Shown: positions 3,802 to 11,805 of the stretch, piece by piece
Layout: every line of letters begins with the position of its first letter
Position numbering within the stretch: position 1 is the first letter of the stretch
Sequence record: SRR9188677_86
Reading direction: 5' to 3' (one strand)
DNA length: 64,000 nt
Notes under the pieces: model-generated
The model's database searches: none
Seen by the model: only the letters and a program-made list of their open reading frames with translations
What the model was told of the DNA's origin: nothing
Translations under genes and position numbers: made by a program

Positions 3802-4745
3802 TGCGATTCTAATTCTTTTTGTTTTTCTCGTTTGATGTGATGTATTGAAGCATTTAAGTCGAAACCTAAAAGCAAAATCATACAATTTATCCAAATATAA
3901 AACATTACGACCAATAAAGTTCCTATGGAACCATAAAGCTCGTTGTATTTTGAAAATTTAACAACCCAAATCCCAAAGAAATAAGATGATATAATAATCA
4001 GAATAGTAGTAAATACAGAACCTATCGAGATTAATTTTCTTTTTTTCTCGCGTTTGATGCCGTATTTGAAAAGCAGCGATGTTGCCATTAAAATCATGAG
4101 GATTACAAAAATATACCTTCCCATTTCTATCAGCGGAATATTATCTGACAATACATCCTGGATCTTGGTTTTCTGTATCAAAACCTCAAAGATTACAATG
4201 ACAGCAACGGTTACGATCAATACCAAAGACAATAAAATCGATAAGGCCAACGCTACCAAATACTGCCTGAAAAACTTTCGCTTCAGCGTGATATGAACAT
4301 GGTGCCCGCTTTCAAACCCTCCCAGAATGGCATTTACACCATTGGTCATCAGCAAAATTGCCATCAGAAATCCGGTAGAAAGCAAACCGCTGTGGCTGTT
4401 GTGGAGAATATCATTGATGATTTTGTAGATGGCATCATAAGTCGTTGGCGGAACGCTTTGTTGTACAAATCCCATAAAATCGTCCTGAAACCCATCAATC
4501 GGAATGTAGGGAATAAGGTTCAGGATAAAAAGCATGAACGGAAACAATGCCATAAAGAAGCTCCAGGCAATCGCGGAAGCACGATAGGAAATCGCTCCTT
4601 CAATTACGCCAATAAAATACAAATCAAGCAGGTCATATAAAGACAAACCGTGGAGCCACGGCAGTTTTATCCTTTGCGTTAAAAGAATCAGCTGTTTGAC
4701 AACCGGTAACTTTGCGAATCTGTTTTCCTTGGCTTCGGTAGACAT
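3798..4745 (-). CDS. YihY/virulence factor BrkB family membrane protein
   Basis: Multi-TM; ASAIAWSFFMALFP and YNELYGSIG motifs. Confidence 0.9.
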   Translation of the reverse strand: MSTEAKENRFAKLPVVKQLILLTQRIKLPWLHGLSLYDLLDLYFIGVIEGAISYRASAIAWSFFMALFPFMLFILNLIPYIPIDGFQDDFMGFVQQSVPPTTYDAIYKIINDILHNSHSGLLSTGFLMAILLMTNGVNAILGGFESGHHVHITLKRKFFRQYLVALALSILLSLVLIVTVAVIVIFEVLIQKTKIQDVLSDNIPLIEMGRYIFVILMILMATSLLFKYGIKREKKRKLISIGSVFTTILIIISSYFFGIWVVKFSKYNELYGSIGTLLVVMFYIWINCMILLLGFDLNASIHHIKREKQKELESQ

Positions 4746-5603
4746 TTAAAGGGCCTTTAAGCTTAAATCCATATTGTAAACCGAATGCGTCAAAGCTCCG
4801 GAAGAAATGTAGTTTACACCACATTCAGCATATTCCCGAATGGTTTTTTCGTTGATGTTCCCCGATGATTCGCTCTGGCATTTGTCACCAATTAATAAAA
4901 CGGCTTTGCGTGTATCTTCAAAATTGAAATTGTCGATCAGGATTCGGAATACACCGTCATTCTGTAGGATCTCTTGAATTTCAGCCAAGCTTCTGGCTTC
5001 CACGATAATCTTCAAATCCAAGTTATGGAATTTTAAAAACGCTTTGGTTTTAGTGATGGCACTGGTAATTCCACCCGCGAAATCATTGTGGTTGTCTTTC
5101 AGCATTACCATATCATACAAAGCAAAACGGTGATTTTCGCCTCCACCAATTTTAACAGCCCATTTTTCGCAGGCACGGAATCCGGGAGTTGTTTTACGGG
5201 TATCTAAAATTTTGGTATTCGTTCCTTCCAAAAGCCTAACGTACTGATTGGTTTTGGTCGCAATAGCGGACATGCGCTGCATTGAATTCAGTACTAACCG
5301 TTCGGCTTTCAGTATAGATTGCGAACTTCCGGAAACATGGAAAACGACATCGCCATGCTTCACTTCCGCCCCATCGTTGATAAACGTTTCTACTTCCAGT
5401 GTCGGATCTACATTCTGGAAAATCATTTTGGCGAATTCCACTCCGGCAATAATCCCGGTATCCTTAACCAAAAGCCTGGCTTTTCCTGTTGCGGAATTTG
5501 GAATGCACGACAGCGAACTGTAGTCGCCCGGGCCAATGTCTTCGCGAATTCCGTTCTGTATAATTATATCAAGCTCTTTTTGAAACTGTTCCTCTGAAAT
5601 CAT
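4746..5603 (-). CDS. nadC: Nicotinate-nucleotide diphosphorylase (carboxylating)
   Basis: EDIGPGD, DTRKTTPG, NHRFALYD, LKDNH, SSGALTHS. Confidence 0.97.
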   Translation of the reverse strand: MISEEQFQKELDIIIQNGIREDIGPGDYSSLSCIPNSATGKARLLVKDTGIIAGVEFAKMIFQNVDPTLEVETFINDGAEVKHGDVVFHVSGSSQSILKAERLVLNSMQRMSAIATKTNQYVRLLEGTNTKILDTRKTTPGFRACEKWAVKIGGGENHRFALYDMVMLKDNHNDFAGGITSAITKTKAFLKFHNLDLKIIVEARSLAEIQEILQNDGVFRILIDNFNFEDTRKAVLLIGDKCQSESSGNINEKTIREYAECGVNYISSGALTHSVYNMDLSLKAL

Positions 5604-5701
5604 TTGAAAAGTATTGATTGGCTAAAATAGTATTTAATTTACTGATTTAAAAAAGAAAATTGATTTTGAATTTCTATTTTTGCAGCACAACAACACTACA
5701 C

Positions 5702-6727
5702 ATGTACAAACTACTCATCCGCCCGATCTTGTTCTGGTTTGACCCGGAAGAAGTCCATTATTTCTCATTCCGTTTTATTCGGTTTACTGCCAAAATCCCG
5801 TTTGTTTCCTCTATTTTGAAATCGATTTACGAAGTCAAAGATCCGCGCTTGGAACGGGAAGTCTTTGGCCTGAAATTTAAAAATCCTGTAGGATTGGCCG
5901 CAGGATTCGATAAAGATGCCAAATGCTATCAGGAACTTTCCAATTTTGGATTCGGGTTTATCGAAATCGGAACCTTAACCCCAAAACCGCAGGACGGAAA
6001 TCCTAAAAAGCGCTTGTTCCGATTAAAATCCGACAGTGCCATCATTAACCGAATGGGCTTCAATAATGGCGGCGTTTCGGAAGCAGTGCAAAGGCTGAAG
6101 AAAAACAAAAACGTTCTGATCGGTGGAAATATCGGCAAAAATAAAGTTACTCCTAATGAAGCAGCAACTTCAGATTACTTAATCTGTTTTAATACTTTAT
6201 TCGATTATGTGGATTATTTTGTTGTAAATGTAAGTTCCCCCAACACGCCTAATCTGCGTGAACTTCAGGAAAAAGAGCCCTTGACAAAACTTTTACAAAC
6301 TTTGCAGAACGAAAACAATAAAAAAGAAAAAGCGAAGCCCATCCTTCTAAAAATCGCTCCCGATTTGACTGATGAACAATTGCTGGATATCATCGACATT
6401 GTAACCGAAACCAAAATTGCAGGGGTAATAGCAACCAACACAACGATTGCGCGTGAAGGCCTACAATCGGAAAATAAAGCGGAAATGGGCGGATTATCCG
6501 GAAAACCTTTAACCAAACGCTCAACGGAAGTAATCCGTTTCCTTTCTGTAAAAAGCAATAAATCGTTCCCTATTATCGGCGTGGGCGGTATCCATTCGGC
6601 AGAAGATGCCTGGGAAAAACTCGAAGCCGGGGCCAGCCTGGTTCAATTGTACACCGGATTTATTTACGAAGGCCCAAAACTGGTTGCCGATATCAACAAA
6701 AAAATCCTAGCCGCAACTGCAAAATAG
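5702..6727 (+). CDS. pyrD: Quinone-dependent dihydroorotate dehydrogenase
   Basis: [31 protein letters not shown]; start moved to ATG 5702, downstream of the TATTTTTG box at 5675-5682. Confidence 0.96.
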
Positions 6728-7423
6728 CTGAACCAATAATCCGGCGGCTATTGCAATTCCGAAACTTAATAAAGTCCCTATAAGGACGTATTCTGTCAGT
6801 TTTCTGTCCTTGGCTTCTTTCAAATCGCCAAAACGGAATATGGATTTGGCTGCGAGTAAAAACCCAATGGCATCAAAATGGCCCGAAACAACGAAGTAAA
6901 ACACAAACAATCGCTCCATAATACCAATATAATTCCCGGCGTTTTGTAAGGAATCGTCGCTTTTATTGCTTTTATTTTCCGGAGTCCAAATTGAAATGAT
7001 GTTTTTTATGATTATGGAGGTAGGCTTGGTCAGGAAAATAATAGCCGTAGCCATTACCCAAAACTGGTCAGTAAAAAAGTCCCATTCCATTTCCGGCTTT
7101 GTGTAAAAAACAGCTGTAATAATTAGTGTTATCAAATGCAGCAACTGGTCTGCCAAAAACCAGGCCCGCTTGGTAGCAGGCTTTTGGAAGCTAAGCTTTG
7201 TTAAATCGATGATTCCATGCAAAAGCGCCAAAGCAACCGCAAATGGAAGAAATTCTTTTTCCGCGACCAATAAGAAAGCTAAAAAACCGTGCAATAGTAT
7301 ATGCAGATAAAGGAATTTGCTCCTGTAGTTTTTTGCTTCTTTATCCGAAACCCAGGAATTAGGTTGTACTATAAAATCACCGATTAAATGAGTCAATAAG
7401 AGTTTAATAAATAGTGGGATCAT
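6707..7423 (-). CDS. DUF3307 domain membrane protein
   Basis: [26 protein letters not shown] motifs in TM helices; C-terminal GNYIGIMER...AAKSIFRF...[10 protein letters not shown]. Confidence 0.85.
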
Positions 7424-8028
7424 AACATTTTCTTTATTTGTTTCCTGTAATACGCATCCAAATCCTTAACTAAATCATAATTAGCCCGTTTCTGGCGACG
7501 GCTTACCGCAGCTTGGTTGATGCCCAATTTCACTCCTATTTCTTCCTGTGATAAAGTTGGATTTTGCATTGCGGTCAATATGAATTCCGCGGATTGCTGC
7601 AGCCAATTATCCATAAAAGACAAGCTTAGGCGCAGCATTAGGTTCATTTTTTCATCGAATTCTGCATTTCCCGAATTTACCGCCAGATTGACTTTCTGTT
7701 TTTTCAAGGTTTCAAAAAGCTCGCCCGAACGGATAAACGCCTCCCCATTGCTTTCGGTAATCTTCACCGCTTCGTACTCTTTATCCCCAAAACCTAAACT
7801 CATGCGCGCATCCAATTGAATTGATTTAAAAAAAACTTTGATCAATATTACCGAACTCAATGCCTCTTCAGGGTTTTTTATCTCCAACTGAAACTCATCG
7901 CCTCTATAAATCTCCCAATTGTTCGGGCTTTTACCAAACTTTTGAAATAGTTTCTTCAAATCATCCATCCATAATTGGGCCGGCACTTTTCTTGAATTGA
8001 TAATGTCGCCTGTTACAATAACTGTCAT
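7420..8028 (-). CDS. SatD family protein (cyclase/palm-like N-domain + C-terminal HTH)
   Basis: TGDIINSR, YRGDEFQ, RMSLGFG, NGEAF; HTH SQEEIGVKLGINQAAVSRR; start moved to ATG 8028; ATGA overlap with DUF3307. Confidence 0.85.
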   Translation of the reverse strand: MTVIVTGDIINSRKVPAQLWMDDLKKLFQKFGKSPNNWEIYRGDEFQLEIKNPEEALSSVILIKVFFKSIQLDARMSLGFGDKEYEAVKITESNGEAFIRSGELFETLKKQKVNLAVNSGNAEFDEKMNLMLRLSLSFMDNWLQQSAEFILTAMQNPTLSQEEIGVKLGINQAAVSRRQKRANYDLVKDLDAYYRKQIKKML

Positions 8029-8060
8029 AATCAATAGTTTACAATTAGACTTAAAAAAAG

Positions 8061-8068
8061 CAAATATA
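8061..8068 (-). promoter_or_regulatory. Bacteroidota primary-sigma -7 element for the satD-DUF3307 operon
   Basis: Minus-strand TATATTTG = TAnnTTTG consensus; TTTG 22 bp upstream at 8091-8094. Confidence 0.65.
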
Positions 8069-8084
8069 GCCAAATCGATTTAAT

Positions 8085-8160
8085 TATTACCAAAAAACGT
8101 AATATTTTAAATTATTACCAAAATATGTAATACAAGACTTTATTACCATAAAGTGTAATA
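8085..8160. repeat. Array of three 20-bp palindromes TATTAC-N8-GTAATA at exact 28-bp period
   Basis: TATTACCAAAAAACGTAATA (8085-8104), TATTACCAAAATATGTAATA (8113-8132), TATTACCATAAAGTGTAATA (8141-8160). Confidence 0.9.
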
Positions 8161-8228
8161 CTAAAGTAAAAGAAAACGATTGCGAAGCCCAAATATTTTA
8201 GCTAATTTAGCCATCAAAATTTTAGTCT

Positions 8229-9095
8229 TTGAATCCGAAAATCAAAATCATAGAATGCCCACGCGATGCCATGCAAGGTATCAAGACATTTATCCCGACA
8301 GAAAAAAAAGTGGAATACATCCAGGCTTTGCTTCGTGTCGGATTTGACACTATTGATTTTGGAAGTTTTGTTTCGGCAAAGGCAATTCCGCAAATGCAGG
8401 ATACAGCACAAGTTCTGGCAAAGCTGGATTTATCGCAAACGCAGAGTAAATTACTGGCTATCATCGCCAACACACAAGGCGCGCAAATGGCATCAATTCA
8501 TCCTGAAATCCAGTATTTGGGGTTTCCGTTTTCGATTTCCGAAAATTTCCAGATGCGGAATACCCACAAAACGATTGCCGAAAGTTTAATAACGCTTCAG
8601 GAAATCTTGGATATAGCCGATAAATCCAATAAAGAAGTGGTGACTTATATTTCTATGGGATTTGGGAATCCGTATGGAGATCCGTGGAATGTTGAAATTG
8701 TGGGCGAATGGACAGAAAAACTCGCCAATATGGGCATAAAAATCCTTTCGCTTTCGGATACGGTAGGAAGTTCAACTCCGGATGTAATTACCTATTTATT
8801 TTCAAACCTGATTCCGAAATACCCGCACATCGAATTTGGTGCACATCTGCATACCACACCTGATAAGTGGCACGAAAAAGTAGATGCTGCTTATAAAGCC
8901 GGTTGCGTCCGTTTTGATGGTGCCATTCAGGGATTTGGCGGCTGCCCGATGGCAAAGGATGACCTGACAGGCAACATGCCTACCGAAAAGCTCCTATCCT
9001 ATTTCACTACACAAAAGGCCGGCACCAATACCAGCCCGATGAGCTTTGAAAGCGCTTACAATGTAGCTACAAGAGTTTTTACGGAATACCATTAA
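8229..9095 (+). CDS. Hydroxymethylglutaryl-CoA lyase
   Basis: ECPRDAMQG, GAHLH, GFGGCP, GNMPTE; TTG start. Confidence 0.92.
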   Translation: MNPKIKIIECPRDAMQGIKTFIPTEKKVEYIQALLRVGFDTIDFGSFVSAKAIPQMQDTAQVLAKLDLSQTQSKLLAIIANTQGAQMASIHPEIQYLGFPFSISENFQMRNTHKTIAESLITLQEILDIADKSNKEVVTYISMGFGNPYGDPWNVEIVGEWTEKLANMGIKILSLSDTVGSSTPDVITYLFSNLIPKYPHIEFGAHLHTTPDKWHEKVDAAYKAGCVRFDGAIQGFGGCPMAKDDLTGNMPTEKLLSYFTTQKAGTNTSPMSFESAYNVATRVFTEYH

Positions 9096-10183
9096 TCGAT
9101 AGTTTCCCACCATTTTTCAAAAGTTCCCGGCGCGTCCAGATTGACTTTCTGTCCGATCATTGGTGTTAGAAGCGGAATATTTTCTTTTTGAGCTGCTTCA
9201 GAGACCCTTATTATCGGTTCATCCCAGGCGTGATTGGCTAAGGCAAATTTTGCCCAATGTACCGGCATCACTGCTTTTGCTTTTAGGTTTTTGCCTGCCG
9301 ATATCAATTCTTCCGGGAACATATGGATGTATTTCCAGCTTTCGTTGTATTGACCGCATTCCAAAATCGCCAGGTCAAAAGGCCCATATTCGTTTCCGAT
9401 TTTTTCAAAATGCGTATCAAAACCGCTGTCGCCACCAAGATAGATTTTACGTTTTGGAGTTTGCAGGACAAATGACATCCAAATTGCTTTATTCCTTGAA
9501 AATAATCTTCCTGCAAAATGGCGCGCCGGAGTGGTGTTTACAATAAACCCATCACCTAAATCAAGTTGCTGGTTCCAGTCTTTCTCATAAACACTATCCA
9601 GGTCATAACCCCAAAGTTCCAAATGTTCAGCAGTACCCAAACCAGTAATTACTTTCTTTACTTTCGACCTTAATCGGGTAACCGTTTCATAATCCAAATG
9701 GTCCCAATGATCGTGGGAAAGGAACAGGAAATCAATTTCGGGAAAATCTTCTACATTGTAAACATCGCTTCCCGGAAAACTCTTGGTGGTCATTCTTACA
9801 GGCGAAGCAGCACCGCTGAAAACCGGATCGACAAGGATTGTCTTGCCCTCAAGCTGCATAAAATAAGAGGAATGTCCAAACCAGACTATACTATTTTCGC
9901 CTTTATTCAGATGGTGCAAATCCGTTTTCTGTGACGGAATTCGGTCTTTCGGTTTGTTGCGCTTGTCTTTTTCGAATAACACCTTTTTGAGGATTCTAAA
10001 ATACGTTTCTCCTTCGGCCAGATCAGGTGTAAAGTTCAGGTTGTGGAATTTCCCATTTTTATAATTTGGAGAGTTTTCAATGGATGCAAGTCGGTTTCCC
10101 GATGGAATTCTTCCGAATTTAGGCTGCTTGAACCAAAAATAGAAGTAAATGAAAACAAGTGCAATTAGTAAAACAAAAAGCAT
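9092..10183 (-). CDS. MBL-fold metallo-hydrolase (RomA/NAPE-PLD-like)
   Basis: WFGHSS, SHDHWDHLD, PARHF, GGDSG, PVHWAKF; N-terminal membrane anchor. Confidence 0.9.
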   Translation of the reverse strand: MLFVLLIALVFIYFYFWFKQPKFGRIPSGNRLASIENSPNYKNGKFHNLNFTPDLAEGETYFRILKKVLFEKDKRNKPKDRIPSQKTDLHHLNKGENSIVWFGHSSYFMQLEGKTILVDPVFSGAASPVRMTTKSFPGSDVYNVEDFPEIDFLFLSHDHWDHLDYETVTRLRSKVKKVITGLGTAEHLELWGYDLDSVYEKDWNQQLDLGDGFIVNTTPARHFAGRLFSRNKAIWMSFVLQTPKRKIYLGGDSGFDTHFEKIGNEYGPFDLAILECGQYNESWKYIHMFPEELISAGKNLKAKAVMPVHWAKFALANHAWDEPIIRVSEAAQKENIPLLTPMIGQKVNLDAPGTFEKWWETID

Positions 10184-10332: not shown

Positions 10333-11805
10333 ATGAAAGCACACACCACTAAAATCGTTGGAGAAGGACTTACCTACGACGATGTACTGCTAATCCCAAA
10401 TTATTCAGAAGTTTTACCGCGCGAAGTCAGCATTCAATCGAAATTTTCGAGGAATATCACTTTGAACGTTCCGATCGTTTCTGCCGCTATGGATACCGTT
10501 ACCGAAAGCTCGATGGCAATTGCCATGGCTCAGGAAGGCGGAATCGGCGTTTTGCACAAAAATATGACCATTGAACAGCAAGCAGCCAAAGTCCGAAAAG
10601 TAAAGCGTGCCGAAGCAGGAATGATTATCGATCCTGTGACTTTACCTTTAACTGCGACTGTTGGCGATGCTAAGATGGCAATGAAGGAATACTCCATTGG
10701 CGGAATCCCGGTTGTAGATGATAACGGAATATTGAAAGGAATTGCAACCAACAGGGATCTGCGTTTCGAGAAAATAAATTCGCGATCGATTACAGAAGTG
10801 ATGACTTCAGAAAACCTGGTGACTGCTGCCGAAGGAACTACTTTACAGGAAGCCGAAGGAATACTTCAGAAAAACAAAATCGAAAAGCTTCCGGTAGTCG
10901 ATGATAATTTCAAGCTAATCGGGTTGATTACCTTTAGGGACATTACCAAACTCACCCAAAAACCGATTGCCAACAAAGATAAATTCGGAAGATTACGGGT
11001 CGCTGCTGCTTTAGGAGTTACCGCCGATGCCTTGGAAAGGGCTACCGCTTTGGTAAACGCAGGAGTTGATGCCGTAATTATCGACACGGCCCACGGCCAT
11101 ACACAAGGCGTTGTCACAGTTTTAAAAGAAGTAAAAGCAAAATTTCCCGAGTTGGATGTAGTTGTTGGAAACATTGCTACACCAGAAGCTGCCTTATATT
11201 TAGTTGAAAATGGTGCTGATGCCGTAAAAGTTGGCATTGGCCCCGGATCAATCTGCACTACACGGGTGGTTGCAGGAGTTGGTTTTCCGCAATTCTCAGC
11301 CGTTTTGGAAGTTGCCGCAGCATTAAGAGGAAGCGGTGTTCCTGTAATTGCAGATGGCGGAATCCGATATACAGGTGATATCCCGAAAGCAATTGCTGCT
11401 GGTGCAGATTCTGTAATGTTAGGGTCATTATTGGCCGGAACGAAAGAATCTCCGGGGGAAACCATCATTTTTGAAGGAAGAAAATTCAAATCCTATCGCG
11501 GAATGGGCTCGGTTGAAGCCATGCAGGAAGGTTCAAAAGACCGCTATTTCCAGGATGTGGAGGATGATATCAAAAAACTCGTTCCGGAAGGAATTGTAGG
11601 ACGCGTTCCCTATAAAGGCGAACTGAACGAAAGCATGCAGCAGTTTGTTGGCGGGCTTCGTGCCGGAATGGGCTACTGCGGTGCCAAAGACGTACCGACA
11701 CTTCAGGCAACTGGACGTTTTGTACGAATCACAGCCAGCGGAATCGGTGAAAGCCATCCTCATAATGTTACCATCACCAAAGAAGCTCCTAATTATTCAA
11801 GATAA
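10333..11805 (+). CDS. guaB: IMP dehydrogenase
   Basis: [12 protein letters not shown] pair, [17 protein letters not shown]. Confidence 0.98.

Follow-up and report, generated by a model that had tools for sequence, protein, structure and literature searches.

The window analyzed here, the whole stretch of 64,000 nucleotides (nt) from sequence record SRR9188677_86, includes a pair of minus-strand genes encoded in a Flavobacterium: satD and a gene for a membrane protein of the DUF3307 family. The assignment to this genus comes from the names carried by close relatives. In our preferred interpretation, which has moderate confidence, SatD represses its own expression, has a palm domain that binds a nucleotide or a metal, and controls the DUF3307 protein, a membrane protein with a metal site. 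The results that bear on it are the gene structure, the predicted fold of SatD, the conservation of residues, the linkage of the two genes, arrays of operator-like sequences, and the co-variation of these operators with the recognition helix of SatD.

In the proposed mechanism, the HipB/Xre-like helix-turn-helix (HTH) domain of SatD would bind, as a dimer, each of three 20-bp palindromes that lie over the satD promoter, and SatD would assemble cooperatively, in a filament-like manner, on a 14-bp lattice of half-sites. The palm domain would bind a Mg-nucleotide, as ligand or as substrate, through two Asp residues, with the basic residues K64 and R75 also kept, and its ligand state would set the tightness of the hold of SatD on the operators. 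The output would be the translationally coupled, polytopic DUF3307 protein, with about eight predicted membrane helices, four of which would supply one intramembrane metal site, and with a highly conserved, probably cytoplasmic, face. The amount of the DUF3307 protein would thereby be kept low and tied to the ligand state of SatD, and an excess would probably be harmful. Harm by the unrestrained protein is suggested by Streptococcus pyogenes, in which satD is the sole accessory gene scored as essential across transposon screens and is present in 178 of 249 genomes, according to an excerpt of the source (PMC11323703).

Gene structure and predicted palm domain of SatD

The satD coding sequence occupies positions 7420 to 8028 (minus strand) and encodes 202 amino acids (aa) from an ATG at 8028. 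The DUF3307 gene lies at 6707 to 7423 (minus strand) and encodes 238 aa, with a match to PF11750 at an E-value of 6.1e-27. The stop of satD and the start of the DUF3307 gene share the four bases ATGA at 7420 to 7423 (minus strand), indicating translational coupling; this overlap had been noticed in a preliminary description of the window and was confirmed. The motifs TGDIINSR, YRGDEF, RMSLGFG and NGEAF that it listed for SatD are all present in the translation. The mechanical open reading frame (ORF) call for SatD runs from 7420 to 8073 (minus strand) and gives 217 aa from a TTG at 8073. Over 100 of 120 relatives listed are 201 to 203 aa long and have the same start as the ATG at 8028 (MT/MxxVITGD), so satD was taken as 7420 to 8028 and the intergenic region as 8029 to 8228. 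Positions 8029 to 8160 are thus noncoding and hold the leader, the promoter and three operator-like palindromes. The 217-aa reading frame was rejected as the real satD because its relatives have their start at the ATG and because the extension would contain the candidate promoter box. This longer form, which is also stored as P0001 (218 aa), takes in promoter sequence.

The match of the window SatD to the Pfam family SatD (PF16264) is below threshold, scoring 26.3 to 26.6 bits (E 6e-6) where 29 are required, with an alignment that covers model positions 3 to 195 of 211. Membership of the family was nevertheless assigned because the protein is 71 to 77% identical to proteins that carry the name 'SatD family protein' in NCBI/UniRef (P0024, P0114, P0117) and because PF16264 is matched by 106 of 137 diverse relatives, with a best E-value of 6.6e-14. 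The closest ESM Atlas clusters also carry PF16264. A search of 1.84 billion cluster representatives gave SatD relatives in 1371 clusters at 50% identity (E up to 1e-3), and alignment A1 consists of 136 full-length relatives (32 to 51% identical to the query) together with the window SatD, 137 sequences in all. No longer fused form of SatD was found among 8000 candidates, which is weak evidence. In NCBIfam, SatD gave only sub-threshold matches to sigma/MarR HTH models and the DUF3307 protein gave nothing; in a single-sequence search of solved structures, SatD had chance-level matches only and the DUF3307 protein had none.

The AlphaFold2 model of SatD made from A1 has a predicted local distance difference test score (pLDDT) of 98.1 and a predicted template modelling score of 0.93. 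In this model residues 1 to 120 (7669 to 8028, minus strand) adopt a nucleotide-cyclase-like palm domain, marked by D8, D44, K64, R75 and G79/G81, in the order strand-helix-strand-strand-helix-strand-strand-helix-strand, and residues 122 to 201 are helical. The strands comprise residues 2 to 10, 38 to 41, 45 to 50, 73 to 81, 83 to 85 and 115 to 118, and the helices of the N-terminal domain comprise residues 21 to 31, 53 to 68 and 96 to 111. In a Foldseek comparison with the PDB, about 40 matches were listed, and each of them is, or includes, a palm domain of the GGDEF, Cas10, mCpol or class III cyclase kind. The earlier suggestion that the N-terminal domain is cyclase-, GGDEF- or mCpol-like is therefore supported at the level of the predicted fold.

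The GGDEF matches included 6hbz (DgcB, E 9.8e-4), 4wxo and 6eib, these three at E-values of about 1e-3, as well as 4zvh and 1w25. The class III cyclase matches were 4wp9, 1ybt, 4yus and 5mbg, and further matches were found to Cas10/Csm1 (9g9g, 6xn7) and a Pycsar uridylate cyclase (8jsz). The named proteins among the matches are DgcB, SadC, DosC, PleD, Ma1120, Rv1900c, Csm1 and OptS; the last, the mCpol protein of Panoptes (9pd0), was a weak match at rank 43 with a template modelling (TM) score of 0.38. The Foldseek E-values were modest overall, with target-normalized TM scores of 0.4 to 0.5 for single-domain targets. Against Ma1120, Rv1900c and the photoactivated cyclases, the Foldseek probability was 0.97 to 1.00 at target-normalized TM scores of 0.36 to 0.46.

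The model places D8 at the end of strand 1 and D44 in the hairpin that joins strands 2 and 3, and the two residues would hold the secondary-structure positions of the two catalytic acids of the superfamily. Two conserved Asp of the metal-binding type had been predicted before, and in A1 D8 is kept in 134 and D44 in 135 of the 137 sequences. Other positions of the domain are conserved as well: G7 in 127, S12 and Q47 in 134 each, G43 in 135, F46 in 128, D73 in 122, G79 and G81 in 135 each, G95 in 133 and G102 in 130. Position 64 is K or R in all 137 sequences, and position 75 is R or K in 136. In the hairpin, position 42 is R in 122 sequences and position 45 is S in 98, giving the family consensus RGDSFQ. 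Very distant copies, namely, those of Sphingomonas, Segatella, Fusobacterium, an E. coli plasmid and two haloarchaea, also retain both D8 and D44.

Several points weigh against the assignment. SatD has no significant similarity to cyclases in sequence: with the A1 profile the E-value is 0.27 to 0.41 for Ma1120 and 1.3 for 3mr7, and a profile of the N-terminal domain only (A3, 80 closer sequences) gave nothing but chance matches among PDB sequences (a mite allergen and ThiL). The weak cyclase matches of A1 thus disappeared with the narrower profile. The N-terminal domain has no Pfam match to Guanylate_cyc (E up to 10) or GGDEF, and both families are absent from the 25 commonest Pfam families among the matches of its relatives. 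The transition-state Asn and Arg of class III cyclases have no conserved counterpart, since positions 99 and 100 of SatD are variable; in the stretch G95-x-A-F-x-x-S-G102, position 100 is R in 45 and N in 26 of the 137 sequences. This correspondence is our own alignment to the cyclase motif. Because there is no significant sequence link to cyclases, the palm assignment rests on the predicted structure, and it is still conceivable that the domain is a ligand-binding one of the ferredoxin-like type that only looks like a palm.

Compared with GGDEF proteins and class III cyclases (6hbz, 4wxo, 6eib, 4wp9, 1ybt), the predicted SatD palm shares the order of strands and helices and likewise has one acid at the end of strand 1 and another in the hairpin between strands 2 and 3, where the window protein reads RGDEF. 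The strand R-x-x-(I/L)-G-x-G of SatD also resembles the strand R-I-G-I-H-x-G of class III cyclases. However, SatD differs from these enzymes in having no significant sequence or Pfam match, a consensus of RGDSFQ rather than GG[DE]EF, and no conserved Asn/Arg pair; the domain is only about 120 aa long, is fused to a C-terminal HTH domain and is known from a predicted fold. The signature GG[DE][DE]F is absent from the window SatD, in which R stands at the first position. In mycobacteria, class III cyclases of the Rv0386 type likewise combine a cyclase-fold domain with a LuxR-type HTH domain in one polypeptide. Those proteins exceed 1000 aa, have an ATPase and a TPR region between the two domains and carry a true cyclase signature, whereas SatD has 202 aa and lacks that signature.

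The palm fold and the near-invariant Asp pair are also what would be expected if SatD were a synthase, as in Panoptes. In such a synthase, which was the main idea of the preliminary description, the palm would make a cyclic or linear nucleotide from NTPs, the cytoplasmic face of the DUF3307 protein would bind the product and be opened or held shut by it, and the HTH domain would only dose the pair. According to an excerpt of the source, OptS of Panoptes has a palm domain of about 120 aa with the catalytic residues Asp6 and Asp57, a layout comparable to that of SatD, and mCpol genes are paired with membrane effectors that are restrained by the product (PMC12657218). Panoptes (OptS/OptE) resembles the SatD pair in being a two-gene operon of a minimal palm, with an N-terminal Asp and a hairpin Asp, and a membrane protein, and in that loss of the product of the first gene is expected to be harmful. 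Restraint of the effector by the product would agree with the essentiality of satD in those S. pyogenes genomes that have it, as an excerpt of the screen has it (PMC11323703). The obligate pairing with a membrane protein and the invariant Arg, Lys and Glu in a loop of the DUF3307 protein that is predicted to be cytoplasmic by the positive-inside rule would also agree with a synthase. On the other hand, the DUF3307 protein has no recognizable nucleotide-sensor domain or solved fold relative, the Asn/Arg pair of cyclases is not conserved in SatD, and the structural match to OptS is poor. Three operators and a recognition helix that co-varies with them would be needless for a synthase, although both roles can coexist. 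The systems differ further. OptS has no HTH domain, and OptE belongs to the S-2TM-beta proteins and has a barrel that binds nucleotides; the DUF3307 protein, by contrast, is all-helical, has a His/Asp site and about eight membrane helices, and lacks any relative by fold. In Flavobacterium the locus of the SatD pair is conserved and core-like. The pair also lacks the composition of Panoptes/mCpol systems, which have a stand-alone palm and an S-2TM-beta, CARF-TM or SAVED-TM effector. A synthase is regarded as rather unlikely.

HTH domain and putative operator array of SatD

Residues 144 to 202 of SatD (7423 to 7599, minus strand) form an HTH domain with Sigma70_r4, HTH_24 and AsnC-type matches and a putative recognition helix at N171 to R178. 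HTH families were matched in 78 of the 137 SatD relatives, and the best PDB sequence match of the domain in a profile search was HipB (E 8e-4). A C-terminal HTH, as had been noticed before, was thus recovered by both Pfam and profile matches.

Upstream of satD the window contains three perfect copies of TATTAC-N8-GTAATA, at 8085 to 8104 (nearest to satD), 8113 to 8132 and 8141 to 8160 (furthest from satD), in 28-bp steps; the preliminary description had passed over them. Only 0.16 copies are expected in 64 kb, none of 100 shuffled sequences reached three copies, and no further copy was found in the window even with one mismatch. The gaps between the copies are also 8 nt, and the half-sites alternate in orientation every 14 bp. 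These gaps result in an even 14-bp lattice of half-sites, suggesting cooperative, filament-like occupancy.

The array is not particular to the window. In a comparison of 80 related genomic loci, described below, two or more sites of the TATTAC type (at most two mismatches, within 200 nt of the start) were present at 70 of the 79 loci, with three to four copies at exact 28-bp steps. Between loci the half-sites are fixed and the 8-nt spacers are free to vary. A motif-free search found at least three sites of the form 6-N8-6 at 81 of 85 loci, compared with 13 of 85 shuffled controls. Adjacent sites at the 85 loci are spaced by exactly 28 bp in 169 of roughly 197 cases and by 29 bp in 7.

In other clades the geometry is the same, but the half-sites differ, being altered symmetrically in both arms, and the putative recognition helix differs as well. 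The half-site TATTAC of the window and most Flavobacterium loci goes with the helix NQAAVSRR, and TGTTAC..GTAACA, at loci L058 and L061, goes with KRAAVSRR. TATCGG..CCGATA is accompanied by TQSSVSER (L076, L078, L079), the TATAAG type by QQSAVSQR (L074, L077), TATTAG..CTAATA by NQSAVSQR (L072) and TATCAC..GTGATA by KQNAVSNR (L075). At the haloarchaeal loci L082 and L086, where the steps are 29 bp, GTTCGC..GCGAAC is found together with SKSTVSES. This correlation comes from about seven clades that are phylogenetically nested and are not independent samples, which lowers its weight. Even so, the co-variation is the pattern that would be predicted if this helix read the half-sites directly. A point against the proposed mechanism is that three Flavobacterium loci (L009, L011 and L043) lack the array or have it over 200 bp away from satD.

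L009 and L011 (both 4740 to 5000) have about 200 bp of sequence that is richer in GC and prone to hairpins between the array and satD, and at L043 (4600 to 5000) no array was found within 400 nt upstream of satD. The three loci share a new AT-rich stretch that ends in TATATTTG just ahead of the satD start. The arrangement has the look of an inserted small repeat element, which may uncouple satD from the operators.

The -7 box of Bacteroidota promoters has the consensus TAnnTTTG. Read from the sequence, a candidate -7 box for satD, TATATTTG, lies at 8061 to 8068 (minus strand) and a candidate -33 element, TTTG, lies inside operator 1 at 8091 to 8094 (minus strand). The octamer TATATTTG is found inside the operator nearest to satD at many Flavobacterium loci. 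Since promoter elements would lie within the operator, binding by SatD would be expected to be repressive. A scan for sigma-70 promoters and terminators gave counts near the shuffled expectation, the method being unsuited to Bacteroidota promoters. The array is located in an intergenic region shared with a divergent HMGL-like gene (plus strand, 8229 to 9095; E 2e-19), from which it is separated by positions 8161 to 8228. As the distal end of the operators is about 70 bp from the start of this gene, SatD could also influence it in Flavobacterium.

The hipBA operon carries four copies of the HipB site TATCC-N8-GGATA. By cooperative binding to this sequence HipB autoregulates hipBA, as stated in an excerpt of the source (PMC3376134). 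SatD is similar to HipB both in its HTH domain and in its loci, which carry three to four copies of TATTAC-N8-GTAATA or TATCGG-N8-CCGATA. In contrast, HipB consists of an HTH domain alone (72 to 88 aa) and neutralizes a kinase toxin by direct binding, whereas SatD has a 120-aa palm in front of its HTH domain, a membrane protein as partner and a regular 14-bp lattice of half-sites.

The lattice allows a more speculative reading. Cyclase and GGDEF domains must pair to complete their active sites. If SatD dimers were assembled on the 14-bp lattice, neighbouring palms could pair across the 8-bp gaps into active sites, and SatD would be a DNA-templated enzyme that makes its signal only when assembled on its own promoter. 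The signal would hold the DUF3307 protein shut, in an inverse, Panoptes-like manner, and loss of SatD or its product would open it. Such a circuit would be of ancient origin, common to Bacteria and haloarchaea, and would serve on chromosomes as a fixed circuit and on plasmids as mobile cargo. We consider it very unlikely.

The DUF3307 membrane partner

The match of the partner to Pfam DUF3307 (PF11750) is strong (94.6 bits against a cut-off of 23) and covers residues 4 to 122 only; the C-terminal half, about residues 119 to 238, has no Pfam match. Residues 1 to 118 (7070 to 7423, minus strand) form a four-helix module with H12xxxD16, H41xxxH45, H69xxxD73 and D92xxxH96, in which the partner motifs of the preliminary description can be recognized (H12xxGD16, H41xxxH45, H69xxxD73 and D92QxxH96). 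Residues 119 to 238 (6710 to 7069, minus strand) form a C-terminal helical half that is assigned to no family and has conserved columns in alignment A2, which consists of 140 DUF3307 sequences that are 45 to 93% identical to the query.

In A2, H12, D16, H45 and H69 are invariant, and H41, D73, D92 and H96 are at least 90% conserved. Together with these, Q20, W24, K28, Y39, K76 and Q93 are the invariant or near-invariant residues of the N-terminal half. Those of the C-terminal half are P134, A162-G163, G167, E170-R171, K193-S194, R197-F198, D200, R207, T210-E211-Y212 and G216-T217. The AlphaFold2 model of the protein (pLDDT 90.7, predicted template modelling score 0.72) is all-helical with ten helices. 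Four hydrophobic helices each bear one i/i+4 pair (H12/D16, H41/H45, H69/D73 and D92/H96), as would be expected of a single intramembrane metal site. Judged by eye with the positive-inside rule, the loop from K193 to Y212 and the start of the helix with E170-R171 would face the cytoplasm.

A role of the partner as a nucleotide effector or hydrolase, which had been proposed, found no support in the fold and Pfam searches. The best Foldseek match of the model in the PDB had an E-value of 0.55, among noise from G-protein-coupled receptors and voltage sensors, and Pfam identified no known nucleotide-sensor domain. In BFVD, Foldseek matched only short phage DUF3307 proteins of 115 to 131 aa that correspond to the N-terminal half alone (TM scores of 0.68 to 0.73), and this half also matches phrog_2470 (E 2.3e-13). 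By its sequence, the SatD-linked partner is thus a DUF3307 module joined to a conserved C-terminal half that is assigned to no family. The C-terminal half is the best-conserved part in plasmid-borne partners. A prediction of a SatD-DUF3307 complex scored 0.00 in two runs made without controls, which is no evidence either way.

The stand-alone phage DUF3307 modules (A0A1L7N193, A0A7G7WXF7 and A0A8S5PQC1) come from Ralstonia and Rhizobium phages and uncultured podoviruses and have neither SatD nor the C-terminal half. The partners on enterobacterial and Pseudomonas plasmids are 332 to 356 aa long, about 100 aa longer than the Flavobacterium form (L084, 2483 to 3481; L087, 4236 to 5306; L089, 5266 to 6288), and tblastn similarity to them is confined to the last 80 or so residues. 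One DUF3307 homologue (P0149) bears the JGI name 'Ste14'.

The four helices with conserved i/i+4 His/Asp pairs also allow the partner to be read as a transporter that moves or handles a metal or small solute, with SatD sensing the same ion, alone or as a metal-nucleotide, and derepressing the operon. HxxxD pairs in membrane helices are used by zinc transporters of the cation diffusion facilitator family, and the logic would be that of the regulator/pump pairs of the ArsR, CzrA and TetR types. Such a function would suit the pair in Flavobacterium and other Bacteroidota, where it is inherited vertically at a fixed chromosomal position amid housekeeping genes, and metal-handling genes are common plasmid cargo. 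However, the DUF3307 protein resembles no known transporter in sequence or fold, and the conserved K64, R75 and S12 of SatD would suit phosphate groups better than a bare cation. A transporter also leaves unexplained why satD is essential only where present, as described in the excerpt on S. pyogenes (PMC11323703). We regard this function as improbable.

Genomic context and significance of the pair

A collection with one genome per species gave at least 600 matching stretches, of which at least 599 encode a SatD relative; the best 80 loci, nearly all from Flavobacterium, were kept. The DUF3307 gene is located directly downstream of satD at 79 of the 80 loci, and at the exception (L073) the contig ends inside satD. 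The ATGA overlap is present at 72 of the 79 loci, and the other 7 have gaps of 3 to 4 nt or a 1-base overlap. In a plasmid collection, 19 records had a DUF3307 match, and a SatD homologue was found immediately upstream in all 13 records examined. These 13 comprise 6 with a SatD match and 7 of the 13 with a DUF3307 match only; the remaining six are small Klebsiella plasmids. In the Haloplanus and Halorientalis plasmid records, the upstream gene is annotated as SatD. The A1 profile identified the homologue on a Sphingomonas plasmid (E 2.1e-31), E. coli pEC34A (E 1.6e-27), a P. fragi plasmid (E 6.7e-29) and an E. kobei plasmid (E 9.7e-28), and, with filters off, in a Fusobacterium record (E 1.3e-7). 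The expectation that the two genes co-occur across genomes is thus borne out, haloarchaea included.

At about 70 Flavobacterium loci the pair lies between the HMGL-like gene and pyrD, as it does in the window. There, pyrD (5660 to 6727, plus strand; DHO_dh, E 2.4e-87) and the DUF3307 gene converge with a 21-bp overlap of their 3' ends at 6707 to 6727, and the start of the HMGL-like gene is about 200 bp past the satD end of the pair. The antisense arrangement relative to these two plus-strand genes, including the overlap with pyrD, is as first described. At the other Flavobacterium loci, too, the end of pyrD is adjacent to the end of the DUF3307 gene or slightly overlaps it. The pair is therefore a fixed, vertically inherited locus in Flavobacterium and no patchy island, contrary to the patchy presence between pyrD and the lyase gene that had been considered. 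ORF calls at TTG codons are too early in this region, and pyrD probably starts at the ATG encoding MYKLL (window positions 5660 to 5700). An Rfam scan of positions 5500 to 9500 gave a single match at chance level.

Seven other Bacteroidota loci (L072 and L074 to L079) have ordinary metabolic neighbours, namely, Ham1, a DEAD helicase, a PEMT/ICMT-like protein, panB, an aldehyde dehydrogenase, Ppx, polyphosphate kinase, IMP dehydrogenase and SelO. Directly upstream of satD and on the same strand, two of them carry a gene for a 150-aa membrane methyltransferase of the PEMT/ICMT family (L074, 4436 to 4888; L077, 4464 to 4916). This neighbour and the name Ste14 make a link of the pair to a lipid or prenyl substrate possible. 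Nucleotide metabolism genes recur near the pair: pyrD and IMP dehydrogenase (10333 to 11805) in the window, IMP dehydrogenase at L078 (2613 to 4097), Ham1 (ITPase) at L074 (3761 to 4402) and L077 (3800 to 4378), and Ppx/GppA with polyphosphate kinase at L076 (7140 to 10320). This recurrence may be due to chance.

The plasmids present a different picture. The pair is the sole cargo of the 3.77-kb mobilizable E. coli plasmid pEC34A, and five 3,770-bp Klebsiella plasmids also have a DUF3307 match. On the Sphingomonas plasmid the pair adjoins Pycsar, TIR and ImmA/IrrE genes, on the P. fragi plasmid it lies among toxin-antitoxin genes and integrases, and on the E. kobei plasmid it adjoins AAA ATPase, helicase, DUF4365 and integrase genes. 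Such defence-like surroundings were seen only on some plasmids. The Pycsar system of the Sphingomonas plasmid (L085) is convergent and lies just downstream; an extra 81-aa ORF (2500 to 2745) has a 4-base overlap with the start of the SatD homologue, making a three-gene module there. The E. coli plasmid module had no match in 5,426 E. coli genomes.

These contexts, together with the streptococcal essentiality of satD, keep alive a toxin-like role of the membrane partner. The DUF3307 protein would then be a membrane toxin and SatD a HipB-like repressor or antitoxin; if a cell lost SatD together with the plasmid, or because a phage interfered, the toxin would be freed, resulting in addiction, abortive infection or another anti-phage effect. 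The HipB-like HTH domain and operator geometry, the minimal E. coli and Klebsiella plasmids, the defence-like or mobile neighbours on the other three plasmids, and the essential accessory gene satD of S. pyogenes (PMC11323703, excerpt) agree with this. However, neither protein matched any family of PADLOC-DB v2.0.0 (2023) at E-values up to 1, and a search of 50,697 phage records with both window proteins gave no match. The pair occupies one conserved site, from the HMGL-like gene to pyrD, in about 70 Flavobacterium species and has ordinary metabolic neighbours at the seven other Bacteroidota loci. An antitoxin role would also leave the conserved metal-binding palm domain unexplained. For the pair as a whole we judge an addiction or defence function unlikely. 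In this genome the possible defence role raised earlier is disfavoured by the syntenic locus and the lack of a PADLOC match; on plasmids a defence role of the pair is plausible.

Only ffh, and not satC, satD or satE, reportedly accounted for the acid phenotype in the original sat operon paper of Kremer et al. from 2001, so the name of the SatD family says little about function. In Streptococcus mutans, SMU.1057 presumably lies directly beside satD. An excerpt of a study of this species identifies SMU.1057 as SatE and YlxM (SMU.1061) as another component of the sat operon (PMC13492114). In Streptococcus suis, the annotation of satD is that of a DNA-binding protein, and gel shifts show that the satD mRNA binds to a small RNA, rss03, again according to an excerpt (PMC12005413). 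The literature searched contained one paper with DUF3307, a jumbo Ralstonia phage genome that, in the excerpt, lists one DUF3307 protein (PMC8504454), and no paper that links a SatD protein to a cyclase or palm fold. The view of SatD as a ligand-responsive repressor that restrains its partner is weakened in two respects: the essentiality of satD in S. pyogenes could be a polar effect, and the literature searched held no experiment on DNA binding or ligands of the SatD family.

Both families and their adjacency are already recorded in databases under uninformative names. The assignment of the palm fold with its conserved catalytic-type Asp, the two-part anatomy of the partner, and the 14-bp lattice of half-sites with co-variation between protein and operator, from Bacteroidota to haloarchaea, were not found in the literature searched. 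SatD and DUF3307, widespread families with no assigned mechanism, are now given a concrete, testable anatomy: a predicted palm with a HipB-like DNA-binding domain, an operator lattice that tracks the recognition helix, and an obligate partner with a His/Asp site on four helices. Should the palm serve only as a sensor, it would still be a new ligand-sensing module for transcription factors. If it is active, the pair would link a promoter and a membrane protein to nucleotide signalling in a new way, which would account for the essentiality of the accessory gene satD in one Streptococcus species.

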